Shown: piece by piece, positions 1,048 through 36,906 of the stretch
How the letters are laid out: the number at the start of each line of letters is the position of its first letter
How positions within the stretch are numbered: the stretch's first letter is position 1
From: a virus
Length of the DNA stretch: 64,000 bases
Virus record (IMG/VR): IMGVR_UViG_3300048580_000372
Coordinates: 1-64,000 of that record
Strand: one strand, 5' to 3'
Position numbers and translations under genes: made by a program
Notes under the pieces: generated by a model
What the model saw: the letters and a program-made list of their open reading frames with translations, nothing else
The model's database searches: none
Told to the model about the DNA's origin: nothing

Positions 1048-1516
1048 TAAGGCTACAAATCATCTTTGGTTCATATTTATAATCTGACTCTGCTGTTATT
1101 TTAAAGTTTTGGTTTTCCTTGAATGCTACCCACAATGGTAATATTTTTATATTAATGGTGCATTCAAAGGTCTCTGGTGGATATTCATTCATAATTGTAA
1201 TGACAGTTACTTTATATGGTTGTTTAGCACCTTCATCAATTCTTTTTTCTGTTACAAAAGTATTATAAGTATATGTTTTTGTTCTATCTTTTTCAGACAA
1301 AATAAAGAATAATAGTGCAAGTGGGACTAATAATGCAACAACAACTGTAATAATTTTTTTGGGAAGATTGCGTTTTTCTTCTGCTTCTTGTTTTTTCCAC
1401 AATGCTTTAAAATTGACTGCTTTTTTTGGGTCAAATGTTTTTTGTGGTTTTGCAGAAGGTTTTTCCTCCAATTTCTTTGGAGGTTCGTTATCTGGGTGAA
1501 TTACTGCGTTTTTCAT
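1004..1516 (-). CDS. Hypothetical single-pass membrane protein
   Basis: 170 aa with one TM segment (IITVVVALLVPLALLFFIL). Confidence 0.55.
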   Translation of the reverse strand: MKNAVIHPDNEPPKKLEEKPSAKPQKTFDPKKAVNFKALWKKQEAEEKRNLPKKIITVVVALLVPLALLFFILSEKDRTKTYTYNTFVTEKRIDEGAKQPYKVTVITIMNEYPPETFECTINIKILPLWVAFKENQNFKITAESDYKYEPKMICSLINESMVVEILEQLK

Positions 1517-1649
1517 AATTTATCCATCCTATTCTTAAAATGGTTTATCTATACACAATATCATAAGATGCATCTTGTGTATATAATTATTTATAAAAAA
1601 ATTGTAAAAACTAAATATTATTGATATAATAATACAAAAGGAGTAAAAA

Positions 1650-1928
1650 ATGAAAAGGTTAATTTTAATATTATTTTTCATATCATCATCTGCAATGGCT
1701 GGTGAACCATTCTGCAATTATCTTGGTGATTTTTTTAATTTCATAACGCTTCAGCCATCATGTTATGAACGAATAAGAAAATATAATTATGATCATTCAG
1801 AACGTTCTGTTACTGATTTGGCTGATATTTATGGACCACACAGCCCAGAACATCCACCTGAAAATTATCATAGGGTTAAAGAAGGGTTTGGGAATGATGC
1901 TTGGGAGAAAAATAATAGAGGATGGTAA
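1650..1928 (+). CDS. Hypothetical secreted protein
   Basis: AAGGAG SD; signal-peptide-like N-terminus MKRLILILFFISSSAMA. Confidence 0.6.
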   Translation: MKRLILILFFISSSAMAGEPFCNYLGDFFNFITLQPSCYERIRKYNYDHSERSVTDLADIYGPHSPEHPPENYHRVKEGFGNDAWEKNNRGW

Positions 1929-1934
1929 AAAATA

Positions 1935-1959
1935 AAAAGGGAGCCGAAGCCCCCTTTTT
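1935..1959. terminator. Bidirectional intrinsic terminator (ends tmRNA transcript and ORF 1650..1928)
   Basis: AAAAGGGAGC-cgaa-GCCCCCTTTTT with A/T runs on both sides. Confidence 0.8.
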
Positions 1960-2255
1960 ATAATAATATTATTTAACAGGGAATTATCATAACCCCGAAT
2001 GTTTTTGGAAAAGTTCAAGTGCTCACGCAGCTTGAAGTTCAGTTCCCATAACATAGTTGTCGTTTGAAGCGACAGTTTTAATTTTTCTCGCGGTAACCCT
2101 GCTGGAATTCGGGTGAACGCAACCTTGCGATATTCACTCCAATTACTATCCACCCCATCAAACCTAAATGTGCCCCATAAGAAATTATGGTTCGTGGAGC
2201 ACTGGGGACTTGCACCCCATTCTACAGTGGTCTTCATCTTTGTTCAAACGTCCAT
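1960..2255 (-). ncRNA. ssrA: Circularly permuted (two-piece) tmRNA
   Basis: On the minus strand: T-arm TGGGG-TGCAAGT-CCCCA (2219-2203), acceptor 3' strand GTGCTCC-A (2202-2195), 18-nt intervening segment, then 5' strand GGGGCAC (2176-2170). These give a 7-bp stem with G3.U70 and A73. Tag frame 2070-2023 encodes ASNDNYVMGTELQAA* after AAAACTGTC. Outer ends approximate. Confidence 0.9.
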
Positions 2256-2261
2256 TGTGAT

Positions 2262-2290
2262 AATATACCACAAACCTATTTAGTAGTCAA
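2262..2290 (-). promoter_or_regulatory. Sigma70-type promoter of tmRNA
   Basis: TTGACT-N17-TATATT with extended -10 TG. Confidence 0.75.
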
Positions 2291-2323
2291 TTAAAAAAAC
2301 ACCCAGTTATCATCTTTTTTTCA

Positions 2324-3769
2324 CTATTTTGCAGTTTGTTCAATATAAAGGATTTCTTCTTCTGTTAACTCATATTCAATAGGATATTCATATCCTGTCT
2401 TGATTTGAGATAAATCAAAATCTTTCATATATCTAAACACCATACCTCTTGTTTTTTCGTGTAATTGTTTTGTTATATATTTCATCAATGGGTTATTTAA
2501 AATAAACAACTTTGCAGCTTCTGCTTCTTCAATTGTATTAAAAAACAAAGTACAAGCTGAACCAACATAAGCAATATCATTCACAACAGAATAACTTTTC
2601 ATTGACTCAAGCCCTTTAAACATAAGTTTTGGACCTTTTGGTAACGAACCACCATTAATATATCCATAAACAATATTAGGCGTTGAACTATTTGGAATAT
2701 CAATAACACCATAATTAAATCCATCAACTGGTGTTTGTGAAATTTTATTTTTTTCAATAAGAACTTTAAAACTTCCACTAATTGCACTTTTATATGGCTT
2801 GCTTATACTAATATCATATAATTTAGAAATGATTTTATCATCATCAACATTGGTTTGAGCATTTTCTTTGTTGATAGAAATAAAATAACCAGCTGTATAT
2901 TGCCACCAAGACGAAGTATTTGAACAATATTTTGTAACAGAATAATTATCCATTGCATATTTAATACCATTTCGCTGAACAACCAACGCCACAATACCAT
3001 CTGATACTGCACAATTAAATGATTTTGAAATGAATTTTTTATATAAAGTTGTATTACCAGAAGTCCCTGCAATTGTATTAGCAGAAGATGGTGCCTCGTT
3101 GAACGGCGGGTTACCAACGATAACATCGAATTTCATTTCAGGCTCCCATTCACGAAAGTTTTCATTAAACCCATTTCCACCACCTAATCTAAACCGAGTC
3201 CATTCAACCCAGTTATTATTTATATCATTAAAGTATAACATATTTTTGTCAATATAGTCAAGCCTTTCTTTTTCCGGAATCATTACAAGCCCAGCCATCA
3301 ATCGTTTCTGAATTTGTACAACGAATTCACCAGTCCCACAAAATGGATCAAGAAAGGTCTTATCAGGATTAGTCCAAGTATCAATGGGCAATTTATCCAA
3401 AATATTATTGACCAATAATGCAGGTGTCTTGTAGCATTGGGTGTACAATTTGTCCAAACCAGTCATTACCCCAACAGACAATTTATCCATAACAGTGTCA
3501 TTGCCAACAGAAAAAATTGTCAACTTCCGAAAACATCTCACATATTGTTCCATCAAATAACTATAAGGCTTATAGGGCATGTTTTTAATAGTCTTGATAG
3601 TGCCACCAGCCTTCAAATAATTAGTATCAAAAACAATCGAATCAAACAATTCAATCGTTTCATCATTGGTAATTTGAGTCAACATCGAATATTTAAAATT
3701 TGTCCTAACGATGAATACAGAGATTCTCGCAGTGATATGAAGTTGACGTTTGATATGAAGGTCGTCCAT
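2324..3769 (-). CDS. N6-adenine DNA methyltransferase (Eco57I/gamma-like motif order), apparently solitary
   Basis: Motif I FLDPFCGTGEF precedes motif IV FDVIVGNPPF. Confidence 0.85.
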   Translation of the reverse strand: MDDLHIKRQLHITARISVFIVRTNFKYSMLTQITNDETIELFDSIVFDTNYLKAGGTIKTIKNMPYKPYSYLMEQYVRCFRKLTIFSVGNDTVMDKLSVGVMTGLDKLYTQCYKTPALLVNNILDKLPIDTWTNPDKTFLDPFCGTGEFVVQIQKRLMAGLVMIPEKERLDYIDKNMLYFNDINNNWVEWTRFRLGGGNGFNENFREWEPEMKFDVIVGNPPFNEAPSSANTIAGTSGNTTLYKKFISKSFNCAVSDGIVALVVQRNGIKYAMDNYSVTKYCSNTSSWWQYTAGYFISINKENAQTNVDDDKIISKLYDISISKPYKSAISGSFKVLIEKNKISQTPVDGFNYGVIDIPNSSTPNIVYGYINGGSLPKGPKLMFKGLESMKSYSVVNDIAYVGSACTLFFNTIEEAEAAKLFILNNPLMKYITKQLHEKTRGMVFRYMKDFDLSQIKTGYEYPIEYELTEEEILYIEQTAK

Positions 3770-3781
3770 TTAAAAAACCTT

Positions 3782-4408
3782 TCAATCTTTCCCATTAGCC
3801 TGTCGCAAAGCCTTCCGATGCTTATAACGAGTGGAATTTTCAACCTCAACAATCCATTCAGTCTTAAACAAGGGATTATCACCATAATGCTTAATGGCGT
3901 GTTCAAGACCATCTGCAGCATCCCATTCAAAACACCGACGAAGGTCAGCAATATCAAAAGCAAGACGAGCTTCAATGAATTTCTGAACATTCTTTTCCAA
4001 TAATACAATGTTAAAAGTCATGCTCCTGCCACCATAACCACGATACTTCATATCGTATTCTTGTTCAGTCAAAACACGATCTTCAAACTTTTCTTCCCAA
4101 GCACCAACAAACACAATTCGAGGTTCATCATTAACTGTGATGAACTCAATTTCACCATCATCAACCATGGCATGATGGATATGCCGACAAAGCCCTTCAA
4201 AAGATACAGCATCATTCACACTTCCAGCCCAACATTCGGGAAGAATGGAATAGGGATTGATTTCAGTTTCCATAAGCCAACGAATAAGCAGCTTGAAATC
4301 CTGTTCATAGTCCTTGTCTGTATTCAGCATGGAATTGATATTTTCCAATGCTTCATCATGAGCCTTCTGAAACTTTTCCAAACGATTGATGATTTCCATT
4401 TTCGTCAC
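3782..4408 (-). CDS. Hypothetical early protein
   Basis: 208 aa ORF with GGAG SD, directly behind an early promoter. Confidence 0.75.
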   Translation of the reverse strand: MTKMEIINRLEKFQKAHDEALENINSMLNTDKDYEQDFKLLIRWLMETEINPYSILPECWAGSVNDAVSFEGLCRHIHHAMVDDGEIEFITVNDEPRIVFVGAWEEKFEDRVLTEQEYDMKYRGYGGRSMTFNIVLLEKNVQKFIEARLAFDIADLRRCFEWDAADGLEHAIKHYGDNPLFKTEWIVEVENSTRYKHRKALRQANGKD

Positions 4409-4429
4409 TCCAATTGATTAACTTTACCA

Positions 4430-4457
4430 AGTATAGCAGGATTTATAATTTTGTCAA
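4430..4457 (-). promoter_or_regulatory. Phage early promoter
   Basis: TTGACA-N16-TATACT with CTGC before the -10; same family as copies at ~21.4, 21.9, 22.2, 36.9, 59.0, 59.4 and 59.8 kb. Confidence 0.75.
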
Positions 4458-4468
4458 TGGCTAAAAAC

Positions 4469-4497
4469 AAAAGAACCCGCCTTGCGACGGGTTCCCC
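4469..4497 (-). terminator. Intrinsic terminator closing the microORF-array transcript
   Basis: GAACCCGTC-GCAA-GGCGGGTTC followed by T-rich tail on the minus strand. Confidence 0.85.
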
Positions 4498-4529
4498 TTC
4501 TTCTGGAAGTTAACTAACTCTCTTACTCT

Positions 4530-4880
4530 ACTATCATTATCATCAATATACAATATTAATTTTGAGTCGTCAAGTCCAAGTCATTTTGTCCTCCTCTAAC
4601 GTTTTTCTACAATCCTCAATCTATCATCTATCAATCTAAAAAATTTTTAACCCTTTTAGGGACCAGCCCGAATGCTTGTCATTTTATTTCTCCTAAAACT
4701 TTCTAACACTCAATCTATCATCTATCAATCTAAAAATCTTGGGGTTAACCCCGAGGTCGGTCTCTGCTGTGTGTCATTTTATCTAACTCCTAAGTTCAAC
4801 CAGTCTCTACAAATCTATCAATCATCTATCAATCTAAATTGGTGTCTGTGCTCTGTCGCTTGCCTTTTTTATCCTCCATT
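4530..4880 (-). repeat. Array of ~95-100-nt units: SD-ATG-microORF-stop followed by a TTTAGATTGATAGATGATAGATTGA repeat
   Basis: 25-nt repeat exact at 4616-4640 and 4710-4734, variant at 4812-4838, degenerate near 4530-4555. MicroORFs MTHSRDRPRG* (4777-4745), MTSIRAGP* (4682-4656) and MTWT* (4584-4570), each behind AGGAG/GAGGAGG. Confidence 0.8.
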
Positions 4881-4917
4881 GGGTTTCTATCTTCTTTGTC
4901 TCACTCTCTATGTTATT

Positions 4918-4946
4918 AATATAGCAGGATTTGAAAAATAAGTCAA
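4918..4946 (-). promoter_or_regulatory. Early promoter of the microORF array
   Basis: TTGACT-N17-TATATT with CCTGC before the -10. Confidence 0.8.
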
Positions 4947-4978
4947 CCACTTTTTTGAAAATCATATAAATAATTTTC

Positions 4979-5542
4979 ATGAAAGATATAAAACACAATA
5001 TGGAAATTTTAAAACGAGGGAATGATTTGTTCTTTCGTTGGACAGCTAAAAATTTAACCAAAACCCCAATCAAAATAAAACCCGGTATGGCACTAATCCA
5101 CCCTTTCCACGATTATATCCATACCATCTATAAATTTATTAATTTTACCAAAAAAGAATGGATAGAACCTAACGAAACATTACTCCTTATACAAGAACAA
5201 TTAATCAAGGATAAGGTGGATAATTATCGTTTTAATTCAATACGTTATAAATCACTTGGATTGGAAAGTGCTTCAGGACTACAATACCCAATAACTGACT
5301 TACAATTGAAAAAAATAAGAAAAGCATTCCAAGAATTAGCGTTGGAATTTGGATTACCAGAACATTTGGAACAGGGAATGATATTGCGTTTGGATGAACA
5401 AGACAAACAAATCCAAGAAGTAGTCAATAGAACACCAGCCAAAAATGGATTGCCACAGATAATCACTATAACCATGGAAGAAGGTTATTGTGAAAAAGCA
5501 GACAAAACAGAAAAAGATATTCAGATCATTGATAGACGTTAA
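4979..5542 (+). CDS. Hypothetical protein
   Basis: 187 aa ORF, no recognisable motif. Confidence 0.6.
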   Translation: MKDIKHNMEILKRGNDLFFRWTAKNLTKTPIKIKPGMALIHPFHDYIHTIYKFINFTKKEWIEPNETLLLIQEQLIKDKVDNYRFNSIRYKSLGLESASGLQYPITDLQLKKIRKAFQELALEFGLPEHLEQGMILRLDEQDKQIQEVVNRTPAKNGLPQIITITMEEGYCEKADKTEKDIQIIDRR

Positions 5543-5919
5543 ACCAACAATGATAACAGAAAACCAATCCCCAATCCTGCTGTGGTTTTAGTCACATGAT
5601 AAAACATTGTTTCAGTCAATTTATCCCTTGTGTCAATGGCTGGTATCAATCTTGGTTGAGTTAAATAACCAAACACAAATGATAACCCAACCGCTTGCCA
5701 AATAGTTAATGGTTTTATACCAAGAATTGGTACCAAAAACCAACTCCATAATTTATAAACCACAAAACAATTATAAAAGAAAAAACAACCAAACAATAAT
5801 ATAAGTGACGACCCAATTAGAAAACGATATTTTGGCTCATATTCAGCAAAGTTTTTATGTAAAAATTTCATTCTGCACCTCCATATTAGCATTATACCTA
5901 TGCTCAACATATTTGTCAA
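5539..5919 (-). CDS. Hypothetical membrane protein
   Basis: Hydrophobic helices; LWSWF.VP..G..PLTIWQAVGL pattern common in phage membrane proteins; true start probably at MKFLHK. Confidence 0.6.
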   Translation of the reverse strand: MTNMLSIGIMLIWRCRMKFLHKNFAEYEPKYRFLIGSSLILLFGCFFFYNCFVVYKLWSWFLVPILGIKPLTIWQAVGLSFVFGYLTQPRLIPAIDTRDKLTETMFYHVTKTTAGLGIGFLLSLLV

Positions 5920-5993
5920 ATTTATCTTGCATTATGCTGCGATGCAATATAAAATGTATAAATAGAAAGGGATTAATCTTTAGGAGAAATAAA

Positions 5994-6554
5994 ATGAAAA
6001 TTATGAAATTGACAGAAGTTCAAAAAAATGATTATTTAAAGCATCTACTTGAGTTACCAGAACAAGACAAAAAAATGCGGTTCAATGGTGCAATGCATGA
6101 TGCATCAATCACAAATTATGTCGATAGTATCAATTGGGATCGTGATATGATTTTGGGCAAATATGATAAAGATTTGAACTTGGTCGCTGCAGCCCATATT
6201 GGTTTTTATATCACTAAAGATCAAACCACAGCAGAAATTGGGTTGAGTGTTGATTCTAACCATCGTGGTAATGGAACTGGTTATCAAATTTTTTCCCAAG
6301 CAATTATGTATGCAAGAAATCATAATGCTAATAAAATTTGGGTATCTTGTTCCCGCTCCAATCGCAAAATGATTAATATTGCAGCCAAACATGGACTTGA
6401 ATTGGTCTCAGAATCAACAGACATGGAAGGGTATTTGACAGTTGATAAAGGAAATCTCGTTACTTGGTTATTGGAAATTAGGGAAGATAATTTAGCATTT
6501 GTGGATTATCTTGGGAAAAAGCATACTAAGATTTTTAGAGATATATTCTTTTAA
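5994..6554 (+). CDS. GNAT-family acetyltransferase
   Basis: AEIGLSVDSNHRGNGTG acetyl-CoA motif, N..MI..A.K.G; start re-assigned to ATG 5994 after the AGGAG SD. Confidence 0.85.
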   Translation: MKIMKLTEVQKNDYLKHLLELPEQDKKMRFNGAMHDASITNYVDSINWDRDMILGKYDKDLNLVAAAHIGFYITKDQTTAEIGLSVDSNHRGNGTGYQIFSQAIMYARNHNANKIWVSCSRSNRKMINIAAKHGLELVSESTDMEGYLTVDKGNLVTWLLEIREDNLAFVDYLGKKHTKIFRDIFF

Positions 6555-6582
6555 AAAAGGGGGCTAAAGCCCCCTTTTTTTA
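6554..6582. terminator. Bidirectional terminator
   Basis: AAAAAGGGGGC-taaa-GCCCCCTTTTT between convergent ORFs. Confidence 0.85.
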
Positions 6583-6930
6583 TTCCTCAATTGTTTGAAC
6601 CTGTGCAGTAGGTACAGACAATAGATTTACCACCTTGGCTTTTGTATCATAATACAAGAACGTTGATAGACTGTGACGCCCATTCTTCATGGCAATGGAA
6701 AGCATTTCACCTGCCCATGGTCCAAGCTTATTGTACATTGGATGCTTATCAGCACGTTTATAAAGTTCAACCCTTGGCGGGTCAACCAATAAAAACCCAT
6801 TGGCATTGATCTGAAGCTCAAACTTCATGTCTTTGTCTAATTCAAAACGTGGTTTGAAATCACAAAACCCTTTGTCGTTATAGGACATTACCCGTCCTTT
6901 GGTTCCCTTTGGGACAATCATCTTTCTCAT
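6580..6930 (-). CDS. Hypothetical protein
   Basis: 116 aa ORF with GAGGA SD. Confidence 0.65.
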   Translation of the reverse strand: MRKMIVPKGTKGRVMSYNDKGFCDFKPRFELDKDMKFELQINANGFLLVDPPRVELYKRADKHPMYNKLGPWAGEMLSIAMKNGRHSLSTFLYYDTKAKVVNLLSVPTAQVQTIEE

Positions 6931-6999
6931 TTGTTTATTCCTCTTCTAAAATTTTAAATATAATTTATATTAACACTTTTTACAATTCTGTCAACGTTT

Positions 7000-8178
7000 T
7001 TAATCAAACGTGTTTTGTGATGCTTCAAGAATTTGTTGTTCCATCAATGACCTATCAGGTAACCTATCCGAATTTAAAACATCATTCAATGATGGGACAC
7101 CAATTGCCTCCATGACTTTATGGGCAACGAAACATGGATTCATAAAATTTAAAGCATAAGCCAAAGCATGGGATGCCATATCCAAAACCATTCTCAACAA
7201 TTTCAAAATTTCATTCAATATCAACAATAATGGTGCAATCAATCCCATCAACAACATTGCCAATGGTGCCAATAAATCCCCCAAAGCTACCATCAATGAT
7301 TGGAGTAATTTATCCAATCCCCCCAACAAACTCCCCATTGTCCCTGTCAACATTCCACAAGGGTCCAATTGTTGCATTTTTTGATATAACCCTGTAGCAC
7401 CACCTAACATTGGCAATAGGGAACCAGCAGCCCCGATATGGGCACCTGTATGGATGTTAATGATAGACCAAACATCTGTTGCATTAAATCCACCAATTGA
7501 ACCGGGATTATCAAAAAAGCTTCCACCACCACTGTTGTTGGCTGTTCTGTTCAAATAGGCAATAATATATTGAGCAGTAGCACCACCATCTGTTGGACCA
7601 AATAATCTATTAGCCAATCCTTCCAATGTTGTCAAGTCATGCATTTGTGACAAGGTTTCAAACATAATATAAATGTTATTCTGTAATTGGTCTCGTTGTG
7701 GATAACCAGCATTATCCAAAAATGGATTCCCGTTAGCACTTTGTATAGTTGTAGATGGTGTTGGTGATAACATATCACGCATCATTTGTAATTCATTTCT
7801 GCGTTGTGCTGTCAATGGTGTACTATAATCTAATTGACAAGATGCTGTTGTGCCACCTGGAAGAAAATCATAATCCAATGTTAATGCCATTTCAACACAA
7901 TTCAATCTGTCTGCTATTGCACCAGGTATAGCTGCAATCAATGCAGCCAAATCTGGTGGCATTCTAAATGCAGGGAGAACTTGTGGATTGGCTTGCAATG
8001 GGTCTTCTTCTACATAATTTCTTAAATAATTCCAAGTGTTAGCGACCCCATCGTTTGGGGCAATTGTCCCAATAGGTTGAATGTTCGGACCACCAATGTC
8101 TGCAGTACTTGGTGTTATTTTAGATGGGTCAATACTTTGTTCAACCACACACTCGCTAACTTGACTAATAGTACTCAT
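7000..8178 (-). CDS. Putative virion/baseplate-associated protein
   Basis: 392 aa, directly downstream of the PAAR gene; Gly-rich with a hydrophobic helical C-terminus. Confidence 0.5.
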   Translation of the reverse strand: MSTISQVSECVVEQSIDPSKITPSTADIGGPNIQPIGTIAPNDGVANTWNYLRNYVEEDPLQANPQVLPAFRMPPDLAALIAAIPGAIADRLNCVEMALTLDYDFLPGGTTASCQLDYSTPLTAQRRNELQMMRDMLSPTPSTTIQSANGNPFLDNAGYPQRDQLQNNIYIMFETLSQMHDLTTLEGLANRLFGPTDGGATAQYIIAYLNRTANNSGGGSFFDNPGSIGGFNATDVWSIINIHTGAHIGAAGSLLPMLGGATGLYQKMQQLDPCGMLTGTMGSLLGGLDKLLQSLMVALGDLLAPLAMLLMGLIAPLLLILNEILKLLRMVLDMASHALAYALNFMNPCFVAHKVMEAIGVPSLNDVLNSDRLPDRSLMEQQILEASQNTFD

Positions 8179-8190
8179 TTTAATTTTACC

Positions 8191-9207
8191 TCACGTATAT
8201 AATTGCAATCCTGTAGTTAATTTATAATTTTTATCCATTGTTGATACCTTGAATGGACTTCCCTTGGTTCGTTCTGGAAATGAAACATGAATCCATGGCA
8301 ATCTGCTTGGATATTCCAATATCATCTGCCCAAATGGTAAGCCTGAATTTTTAATTCGTTGTGCAATTTCAAAAACTTCTTGATTGGATTTTCCATTAAA
8401 ACGCAAATCAGCAGCTTGTCCATATTCATGCTGACTATTCTTACCCTGAACATTTCTAAATGCACTATTGACAACAAATTCATATCCCATTCCACGAATT
8501 GGCTCAAGAACGTTGTCACACAATTGTTTTAAATTACAAACTATTTCTGCTTCTGTTAACCCATGTTGTGCCCGCAATGGATGACTACCTGCTGGTGTTC
8601 TTATTGTCAAATCACCTAAAGTAAAATTTTGACTCAATCTTGTCGCAGATGTAAATGGTGGCACCAATCCACCACAATCTGGTGGCGGCGGGGTTGTTTG
8701 AACTGGTGGAACATCATCCTTTTGTGCAGGTGTTGCTGGTGGTGCATCTGGGTCCACACCATTAGCTTTACTTTGTTTTATTTGGGCTTCAGTTGGTGTA
8801 GCACCTTGTTTTAATGGTGGCCAAATTCGCAACCCTTGCATCTGCCCTTCATCTTCTAAATCTGCTTTATCTTTTTCTTCTTCACTTTGTGGAGGTGGCC
8901 AAGAATGATTGACGTTACAAGACATAACATTCGAACTACCACCAATAACAATTGAACTACAACCCAAAATATCACCAATTCTGGCAATGGGTTTTCCATT
9001 GACTAAAACTGTTGGGTCACCAGTTACAACATCACTAACATGGTCTGAAGTATTAGGACAGTGGGCTGGACAAGGTTCCCATGGGTCGCCTTGTCTGGTT
9101 ACTGGAAGTCCATTGACGATAACGTTTGGAGAACCAACATTACTCGATGATGTTCCCCAACAATTGTGTCCTGAATTTGGATCTGTTATACGTGTTACAC
9201 CTGGCAT
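8191..9207 (-). CDS. PAAR spike-tip protein fused to a C-terminal peptidase M15-type (LAS) Zn-peptidase
   Basis: N-terminal PAAR-like repeats (GVTRITD, NGLPVTRQGD, NGKPIARIGD) with His/Cys ligands; Pro-rich linker; C-terminal SAFR...SQHEYGQAAD...WIHVS. Confidence 0.85.
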   Translation of the reverse strand: MPGVTRITDPNSGHNCWGTSSSNVGSPNVIVNGLPVTRQGDPWEPCPAHCPNTSDHVSDVVTGDPTVLVNGKPIARIGDILGCSSIVIGGSSNVMSCNVNHSWPPPQSEEEKDKADLEDEGQMQGLRIWPPLKQGATPTEAQIKQSKANGVDPDAPPATPAQKDDVPPVQTTPPPPDCGGLVPPFTSATRLSQNFTLGDLTIRTPAGSHPLRAQHGLTEAEIVCNLKQLCDNVLEPIRGMGYEFVVNSAFRNVQGKNSQHEYGQAADLRFNGKSNQEVFEIAQRIKNSGLPFGQMILEYPSRLPWIHVSFPERTKGSPFKVSTMDKNYKLTTGLQLYT

Positions 9208-36877: not shown

Positions 36878-36906
36878 TTGACATTAAAATCAAACCTGCT
36901 ATACTT
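36878..36906 (+). promoter_or_regulatory. Early promoter of the large ncRNA
   Basis: TTGACA-ttaaaatcaaacctgc-TATACT. Confidence 0.8.

Follow-up and report, generated by a model that had tools for sequence, protein, structure and literature searches.

The minus strand of an uncultured phage has a stretch of about 440 nt that is flanked by a promoter and a terminator and holds no normal gene, an arrangement that raises the question of what an RNA made from this stretch would consist of, whether it occurs in nature and by what means it could act. A first-pass annotation had read the locus as a stand-alone transcript built from repeated SD-microORF units, one of them ending in the SecM arrest motif, and had proposed that it could trap ribosomes or serve as a decoy.

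The window, i.e. the whole 64-kb stretch of DNA analysed, is the first part of a 73.8-kb IMG/VR record for which CheckV gives a completeness of 24%. This estimate fits a fragment of an uncultured giant (jumbo) phage, and the jumbo phage label of the first-pass annotation is retained on that ground. The G+C content of the window is 33%, and 45 of its 51 long ORFs are carried by the minus strand. The sequencing runs that contain the stretch came from lake and other fresh water, and no phage in GenBank resembled positions 3500-6500. The neighbours of the array are a methyltransferase, proteins without assignment and a GNAT acetyltransferase. The methyltransferase (2324-3769, minus strand) is an N6 DNA methyltransferase of the Eco57I-like type; a nuclease partner was not recognisable next to it, and it is probably an orphan anti-restriction methylase. 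Further away, a PAAR domain protein (8191-9207, minus strand; E 4e-14) also gave a weak match to M15 peptidases (E 1e-3, 19.4 bits vs a Pfam cut-off of 23.2), and its product is possibly a spike tip joined to a cell-wall hydrolase.

A terminated unit of tandem micro-frames

The promoter (4946-4918, minus strand) is of the sigma-70 type, with TTGACT at -35 (4946-4941), a 17-nt spacer and the extended -10 TGcTATATT (4926-4918), and predicts a transcription start at about 4911. It has AAATCCTGCTATA in common with the next promoter (4457-4430). An extended -10 motif of the cTGCTATA type, (T/C)CTGCTATA, was found at 12 sites in the window vs 2.7 expected, and by its recurrence appears to be the mark of a class of phage promoters. 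The sites include 4432-4441, 4920-4929 and 36894-36903, the last of which precedes another gene-free stretch at about 36.9 kb. The term "early" for the transcript derives from the host-type promoter, and the RNA is thus presumably, not demonstrably, early.

At the other end, an intrinsic terminator (4498-4469, minus strand) with 13 pairs, 6 of them G-C, is followed by a T run, and is the best terminator in the first 12 kb. Promoter and terminator thus bracket about 440 nt without a normal gene, as the first-pass annotation had claimed. Since the T run is present on the minus strand only, it points together with the promoter to the minus strand as the one transcribed. An ORF of 89 aa on the plus strand (4672-4941) was rejected as a gene; it had no PHROG match and overlaps the promoter.

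The leader and the first unit, here called unit 0 (4911-4839), contain GGAGG at 4877-4873 and, where ATG would be expected, AAG at 4866-4864, in agreement with the earlier description. The frame reads KASDRAQTPI up to a TAG stop at 4836-4834, and is probably untranslated. Unit 0 is followed by the first copy of a GAT-rich tract (copy 0, 4838-4810), in which a 25-nt match with 2 mismatches (4838-4814) and two tandem copies of the 11-mer GATTGATAGAT were found. Unit 1 (4791-4745) has the SD AGGAG at 4791-4787, ATG at 4777-4775, a frame of 10 codons (MTHSRDRPRG) and TAA at 4747-4745, whereas unit 2 (4694-4656), with AGGAG at 4694-4690 and ATG at 4682-4680, encodes the eight residues MTSIRAGP before TAA at 4658-4656. 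Behind them lie, respectively, tract copy 1 (4736-4709; exact over 25 nt at 4734-4710) and tract copy 2 (4642-4615; exact over 25 nt at 4640-4616). Unit 3 (4596-4570) is the shortest, with the SD GAGGAGGA at 4596-4589, ATG at 4584-4582, the four codons of MTWT and TGA at 4572-4570. The remaining 3' part (4569-4499) contains a degenerate GAT-rich tract. Partly within this 3' part, and overlapping the MTWT stop, is a promoter-like site on the minus strand (4573-4545, TTGACG-17-TATATT), from which a second, shorter RNA (about 75 nt) could run to the same terminator.

The units of about 95-100 nt with SD, AAA-ATG-AC, micro-ORF and tract are thus present, and so are the three peptides first proposed. 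The starts of successive tracts are 94 and 104 nt apart. The tract, 25-28 nt long, occurs in three copies in the array and nowhere else in the 73.8-kb record, and shuffled sequence gave no copies. Copies 1 and 2 are identical at 28 of 28 positions, although the segments between the tracts differ. Two of the stops had been placed in hairpin loops: the GGGG-TTAA-CCCC hairpin (4752-4741), with the TAA of unit 1 in its loop, is indeed predicted, but CCC-TAAAA-GGG would have only three pairs and is absent from the minimum-energy fold.

All three start sites combine a strong GGAG-type SD, 5-9 nt, and AAA-ATG-AC. The real genes of the phage start in the same manner, with (A/T)GGAG-N5-9-ATG and often AAA before the ATG. 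The start region of unit 2 (4698-4680, minus strand) is even identical over 19/19 nt (E 9e-5) to that of the GNAT gene (5979-5997, plus strand; the gene, at 5994-6554 on the plus strand, was assigned by both Pfam and PHROG), which suggests that start-site cassettes may have been swapped or copied within the phage. The proposed SD-microORF architecture is thus supported, its start sites being built like those of real genes. Within the window, the minus strand has three GGAG-N4-10-ATG frames of at most 12 codons, all of them in the array; on both strands together there are 7, vs 22.4 +/- 4.7 in shuffles. Across the window, SD-led frames of at most 12 codons are strongly depleted, and the main coding strand has none besides the array.

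The RNA around these start sites is predicted to be open. Units 0-2 show no more folding than their shuffled counterparts (z +0.4 to +0.5), the terminator part alone is more structured than shuffles (z -3.25), and the whole RNA has a z of -1.76. A search of the array RNA against Rfam gave no match at E up to 1, and a structured RNA was rejected on these two results. The pads of 55-64 nt before the ATGs, made up of tract, spacer and SD, contain 0-2 C each vs 13.9% C on the strand. The record has C-free runs of at least 55 nt at 15 sites, of which two belong to the array, so that the C-free pads are an enrichment and not a unique feature. With open RNA and gene-grade start sites, ribosome binding is likely.

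The frame bodies have a G+C content of 41-55% vs 23-31% in the pads and in two of the three SD-ATG segments, the GAGGAGGA segment of unit 3 having 47%. Several of their codons are among the rarest in the phage (per 1000: CGG 1.1, CCC 1.2, CGA 2.7, CAC 2.8, AGC 3.9), with CAC, AGC, CGA and CGG in unit 1 and AGC, CGG and CCC in unit 2; this rarity is inseparable from the G+C richness of the segments, and describes usage in the phage. Units 1 and 2 share M1, T2, R5 and P8 with differing codons (AGA/CGG, CCT/CCC), and the ATG-less unit 0 has Arg at codon 5 as well. Shuffle tests for the shared residues were marginal (p 0.05 and 0.03).

Presence in RNA libraries, natural variants and relatives

Three lake metatranscriptome runs from three studies (X8, X17 and X24) and one DNA run (X2) were compared with the record over 1500-7500, the runs having been selected with 3800-5600 as the query. 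X8, a library of only 4 million letters, gave a contig of 310 nt covering 4590-4898 with 100% identity at a depth of 24. A contig of 220 nt from X24 covers 4675-4894, and one of 269 nt from X17 joins 4503-4614 to 4709-4870. These three are the only contigs from the RNA libraries with at least 95% identity on 1500-7500, and all lie between the predicted ends 4911 and 4498, whereas the DNA run covers the neighbouring genes too. In fair terms, the array alone was assembled from the RNA libraries within the 1.8 kb of 3800-5600; the lack of RNA-run cover for the tmRNA and other genes is uninformative, since the runs were picked by that query. Promoter, terminator and contigs confined to the unit thus support the stand-alone RNA claimed in the first-pass annotation, which we also call abundant, the contigs carrying neither strand, ends nor expression level.

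The contigs also revealed natural variants. In X17 exactly 94 nt are absent (4615-4708), between identical 28-nt tracts, and this corresponds to the whole MTSIRAGP unit. The same contig lacks one of the two tandem GATTGATAGAT 11-mers in tract copy 0 and has an insertion of 6 nt behind 4532. X24 has GAC>TAC at 4762, by which Asp6 of unit 1 becomes Tyr (D6Y), and shares a spacer change at 4802 with X17. The polymorphisms listed for the DNA run and for the RNA contigs of X8, X17 and X24, a list that leaves out one further difference in the 3' piece of X17 (4503-4614), all fall outside the start and stop codons of the covered units.

The run index uses 31-letter words of Logan contigs, longer than the 28-nt repeat, and we take the contigs to be assembled from 31-letter words as well. 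If so, the repeat is shorter than the word, and for this reason, and because the contig has other private indels, the X17 deletion is taken as real. It is most simply ascribed to recombination between the identical tracts. From the variants it therefore seems that the array changes mainly by gain and loss of repeats, and that the IRAGP unit is dispensable in the phage population found in that RNA library.

It had been suggested that the 25-nt repeat be looked for in related phage genomes, and the search returned no diverged homologue from GenBank phages, IMG/VR or GTDB; beyond the source, only near-identical lake strains were found. Neither the 23-nt tract nor ATGAC-gap-tract patterns were found in IMG/VR, nor a 20-mer of the tract in GTDB genomes. 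A pattern of two tract cores 65-95 nt apart matched a single record in IMG/VR. This is a MAG contig of a true giant virus, encoding PCNA, eIF4E and a protein kinase; its 28-nt tandem repeat is unrelated, and it was rejected as a homologue. The repeat (4.4 copies at 4196-4317 of that record) matches the short variant form of the unit-0 tract at 24/28 positions, a likeness that is probably coincidence. A 20-mer of the unit 1 frame had one match in GTDB, which lies within an ATPase-encoding gene from a Patescibacteria MAG and was set aside as being, by our own estimate, at about chance level for the size of the database. The gene downstream of the array encodes a protein of 205 residues with a homologue of 69% identity; two more distant relatives (36% and 39% identity) lie among packed genes with no array upstream. 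The upstream ORF of 187 residues has no relative in IMG/VR.

The IRAGP frame and the proposed SecM-type arrest

Unit 2 ends in an R-A-(P/G)-P core with Pro as the last sense codon, and its I-R-A-G-P equals the five residues that close the SecM arrest motif of E. coli. A RAPP-like end would arise by chance in a body of such composition with p ~5e-4 per frame in what is a post hoc test, and the match to the motif is genuine and would not be expected trivially. Previous work showed that R-A-P-P and R-G-P-P arrest ribosomes in many contexts, while R-A-G-P of the SecM type is weaker and relies on an N-terminal region and on uL22, and that R-A-G-P is strongly avoided in proteomes (PMC12992588).

Beyond these five residues, the SecM-type arrest put forward in the first-pass annotation is not supported. 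The N-terminal exit-tunnel region (F150, W155 and I156 in SecM) is missing, just four residues preceding R-A-G-P, and a chain of 8 residues cannot reach the constriction. SecM and the RAPP-like peptides ApdA, ApdP and ApcA are much longer, and each precedes a gene, the start of which it exposes (PMC12992588, PMC10951299). Here no regulated gene is found 3' of the frames, which are followed by the stop-rich tract, the next micro-frame and then the terminator, and the next gene has its own promoter. As judged from the sequence, membership in the arrest-peptide family fails on two defining features, the tunnel-contacting region and the regulated gene. SecM-like arrest may thus be regarded as a lead rather than a finding, and, because the X17 variant lacks the IRAGP unit, it cannot be the full explanation.

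What the RNA may do

The best reading, to which we assign a probability of roughly 45%, is that of a tandem minigene RNA that acts through ribosome loading. A dedicated early RNA of about 440 nt, from which no protein would be made, would present tandem units of about 95 nt, each with a C-poor, unstructured, GAU-rich pad, a gene-grade start site, a frame of 4-10 codons and a stop. Ribosomes would start efficiently on the micro-frames and would then run into rare codons (CGG, CGA, CCC) and into ends that are slow, in the form of Pro-stop, Gly-stop and possibly an R-x-x-P motif. In this way the RNA may retain ribosomes, sequester scarce tRNAs in the form of peptidyl-tRNA, or burden the machinery of termination and rescue, and the cost to the phage genes would be low, since they avoid those codons. 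The trap of ribosomes or tRNAs originally proposed thus stays the preferred explanation, as something that we infer.

Small RNAs whose action depends on their own translation are known from minigenes of 3-8 codons (PMC2490762) and from CreT (PMC8501985), and by analogy the lambda bar minigenes and the CreT RNA toxins appear to be the nearest known systems. The lambda bar and engineered minigenes of 2-8 codons are carried on a phage transcript as a strong SD and an AUG followed within a few codons by a stop, and act through translation itself, by peptidyl-tRNA drop-off and tRNA starvation, rather than by way of a product (PMC2490762). Units 3 and 2 fit this toxic format and unit 1, with 10 codons, is just outside it. 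The array differs from lambda bar by its three tandem units, its own terminated transcript, its longer frames (4, 8 and 10 codons) and the tract of 25-28 nt after each. CreT, likewise a small RNA, combines an efficient start site with about six codons of reading frame, rare ones among them, sequesters a scarce tRNA, and has an effect that depends on translation efficiency (PMC8501985). It is however a single unit with two consecutive identical rare codons, repressed by the CRISPR-like CreA with Cascade, whereas the array belongs to a phage and has mixed rare codons (CGA-CCT-CGG; CGG...CCC). No CreA-like or CRISPR-like repeat and no cas gene were found around it.

Several observations count against the minigene reading. 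Minigene effects fade at the length of 8-10-codon frames, which are at the limit or beyond it (PMC2490762); the rare codons do not form the identical tandem pairs seen in CreT; and one unit is dispensable in the X17 variant. Finally, the tract is identical at 28 of 28 positions between two units while the frames differ, which points to a role tied to the sequence of the tract and not accounted for by ribosome loading alone.

In a more far-reaching form of the minigene reading, the abundant early RNA would be a natural ribosome-trap array that stalls or slows host ribosomes for the benefit of host takeover or counter-defence. The R-x-x-P motif, the Pro- or Gly-stop ends and the rare codons would here drain scarce tRNAs, release factors, Pth or rescue capacity, and joint action with the permuted tmRNA of the phage, which has the same type of promoter, might occur. 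We consider this form doubtful. The two-piece tmRNA (1932-2290, minus strand) was called by ARAGORN together with its tag peptide, and matched tmRNA_permuted of Rfam with 46.1 bits (gathering 47) and E 6e-7. A promoter of its own (TTGACT-17-TATATT, 2290-2262), alike in form to that of the array, precedes it, and its terminator lies at 1961-1932; a functional tie with the array, 2.2 kb off, is a guess.

The invariant tract is better accommodated if the RNA is a non-coding sponge or decoy, in which GAU-rich tracts and/or GGA motifs titrate a host or phage factor (CsrA, Hfq, an endoribonuclease, a defence nuclease or a small RNA), or alternatively if the tracts are cut sites from which unit-length RNAs are released; the micro-frames would then be incidental or RNA-stabilising. 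An unstructured RNA called abundant, a unit number that varies between strains as in repeat-array RNAs, and a unit 0 that retains tract and SD-like motif without an ATG are all in line with such a role. On the other hand, the Rfam search, CsrB/Rsm families included, was negative, and the four GGA-bearing sites, about 95 nt apart, do not lie in hairpin loops as is typical of CsrB/RsmZ. Pairing partners of the tract in the phage record were no better than those of shuffled tracts, and an antisense role was rejected on this result. The tract is absent from the IMG/VR and GTDB genomes searched, and three units retain AAA-ATG-AC with the SD at a spacing in the functional range. Taken together, a sponge or a cleavage array seems unlikely, if somewhat less so than the far-reaching trap.

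Decayed tandem duplicates of gene starts, transcribed without function in a plastic early region, would account for the start region that unit 2 shares with a nearby gene, for the lost ATG of unit 0 and for the gain and loss of units by recombination between repeats. Moreover, homologues were not found elsewhere, and an upstream array is lacking in the distant relatives of the downstream gene. Debris would hardly be expected, however, to possess its own strong promoter and terminator, to appear in RNA libraries of three studies, or to maintain tract copies perfectly, nor would the sole SD-led micro-frames of the coding strand be expected to cluster there in a compact genome. We therefore hold evolutionary debris to be distinctly unlikely.

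The residues common to units 1 and 2 in different codons, and the Arg at codon 5 of unit 0, would be explained if the peptides of 8 and 10 residues were themselves the products, for example inhibitors of host enzymes or peptides directed in cis at the ribosome. The marginal shuffle tests, the variants with D6Y and with loss of a whole unit, a third frame of just four codons and the lack of modification or export genes nearby make this improbable. Slightly more improbable still is an element acting at the DNA level, in which the direct repeats would be iterons or would be bound in the course of replication, partition, packaging or recombination, the transcript being incidental or an origin primer. 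The stretch is A+T-rich, free of genes and next to a promoter, and its three direct repeats of 25-28 bp would suit such an element, but they are spaced at 94-104 bp, unlike the repeats of known iteron arrays, no recognisable initiator-like gene adjoins, and the SD-ATG modules and the strand-specific terminator would be left unexplained. Cumulative G-C skew shows no switch at the array, and a replication origin there was rejected accordingly.

Like ToxI antitoxin arrays and phage pseudo-ToxI, the array is a tandem-repeat RNA between promoter and terminator with a repeat number that varies between strains, and the layout with a gene of about 200 codons behind it recalls toxIN; that it is a type III antitoxin (ToxI-like or a pseudo-antitoxin) for the downstream 205-residue protein is nevertheless very improbable, since its units of 94-104 nt bear start sites and frames while those of ToxI measure 34-45 nt, and the gene has its own promoter and relatives without an array. 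The protein was rejected as ToxN-like, having no Pfam, PHROG or PADLOC match and a mostly helical model (pLDDT 79.5) without a match among solved structures.

A full-text literature search found no paper that describes minigene arrays in jumbo phages. Minigenes that poison translation have so far been met in mutant studies of lambda bar, in synthetic constructs and in the CreT toxins. If the tandem minigene reading is true, a natural and abundant phage RNA with several minigenes would mean that phages use translation poisoning on purpose, and the metatranscriptome support makes this array a better starting point than purely genomic instances. If the RNA acts instead through its invariant GAU-rich tract, it would represent an undescribed phage decoy or sponge RNA.
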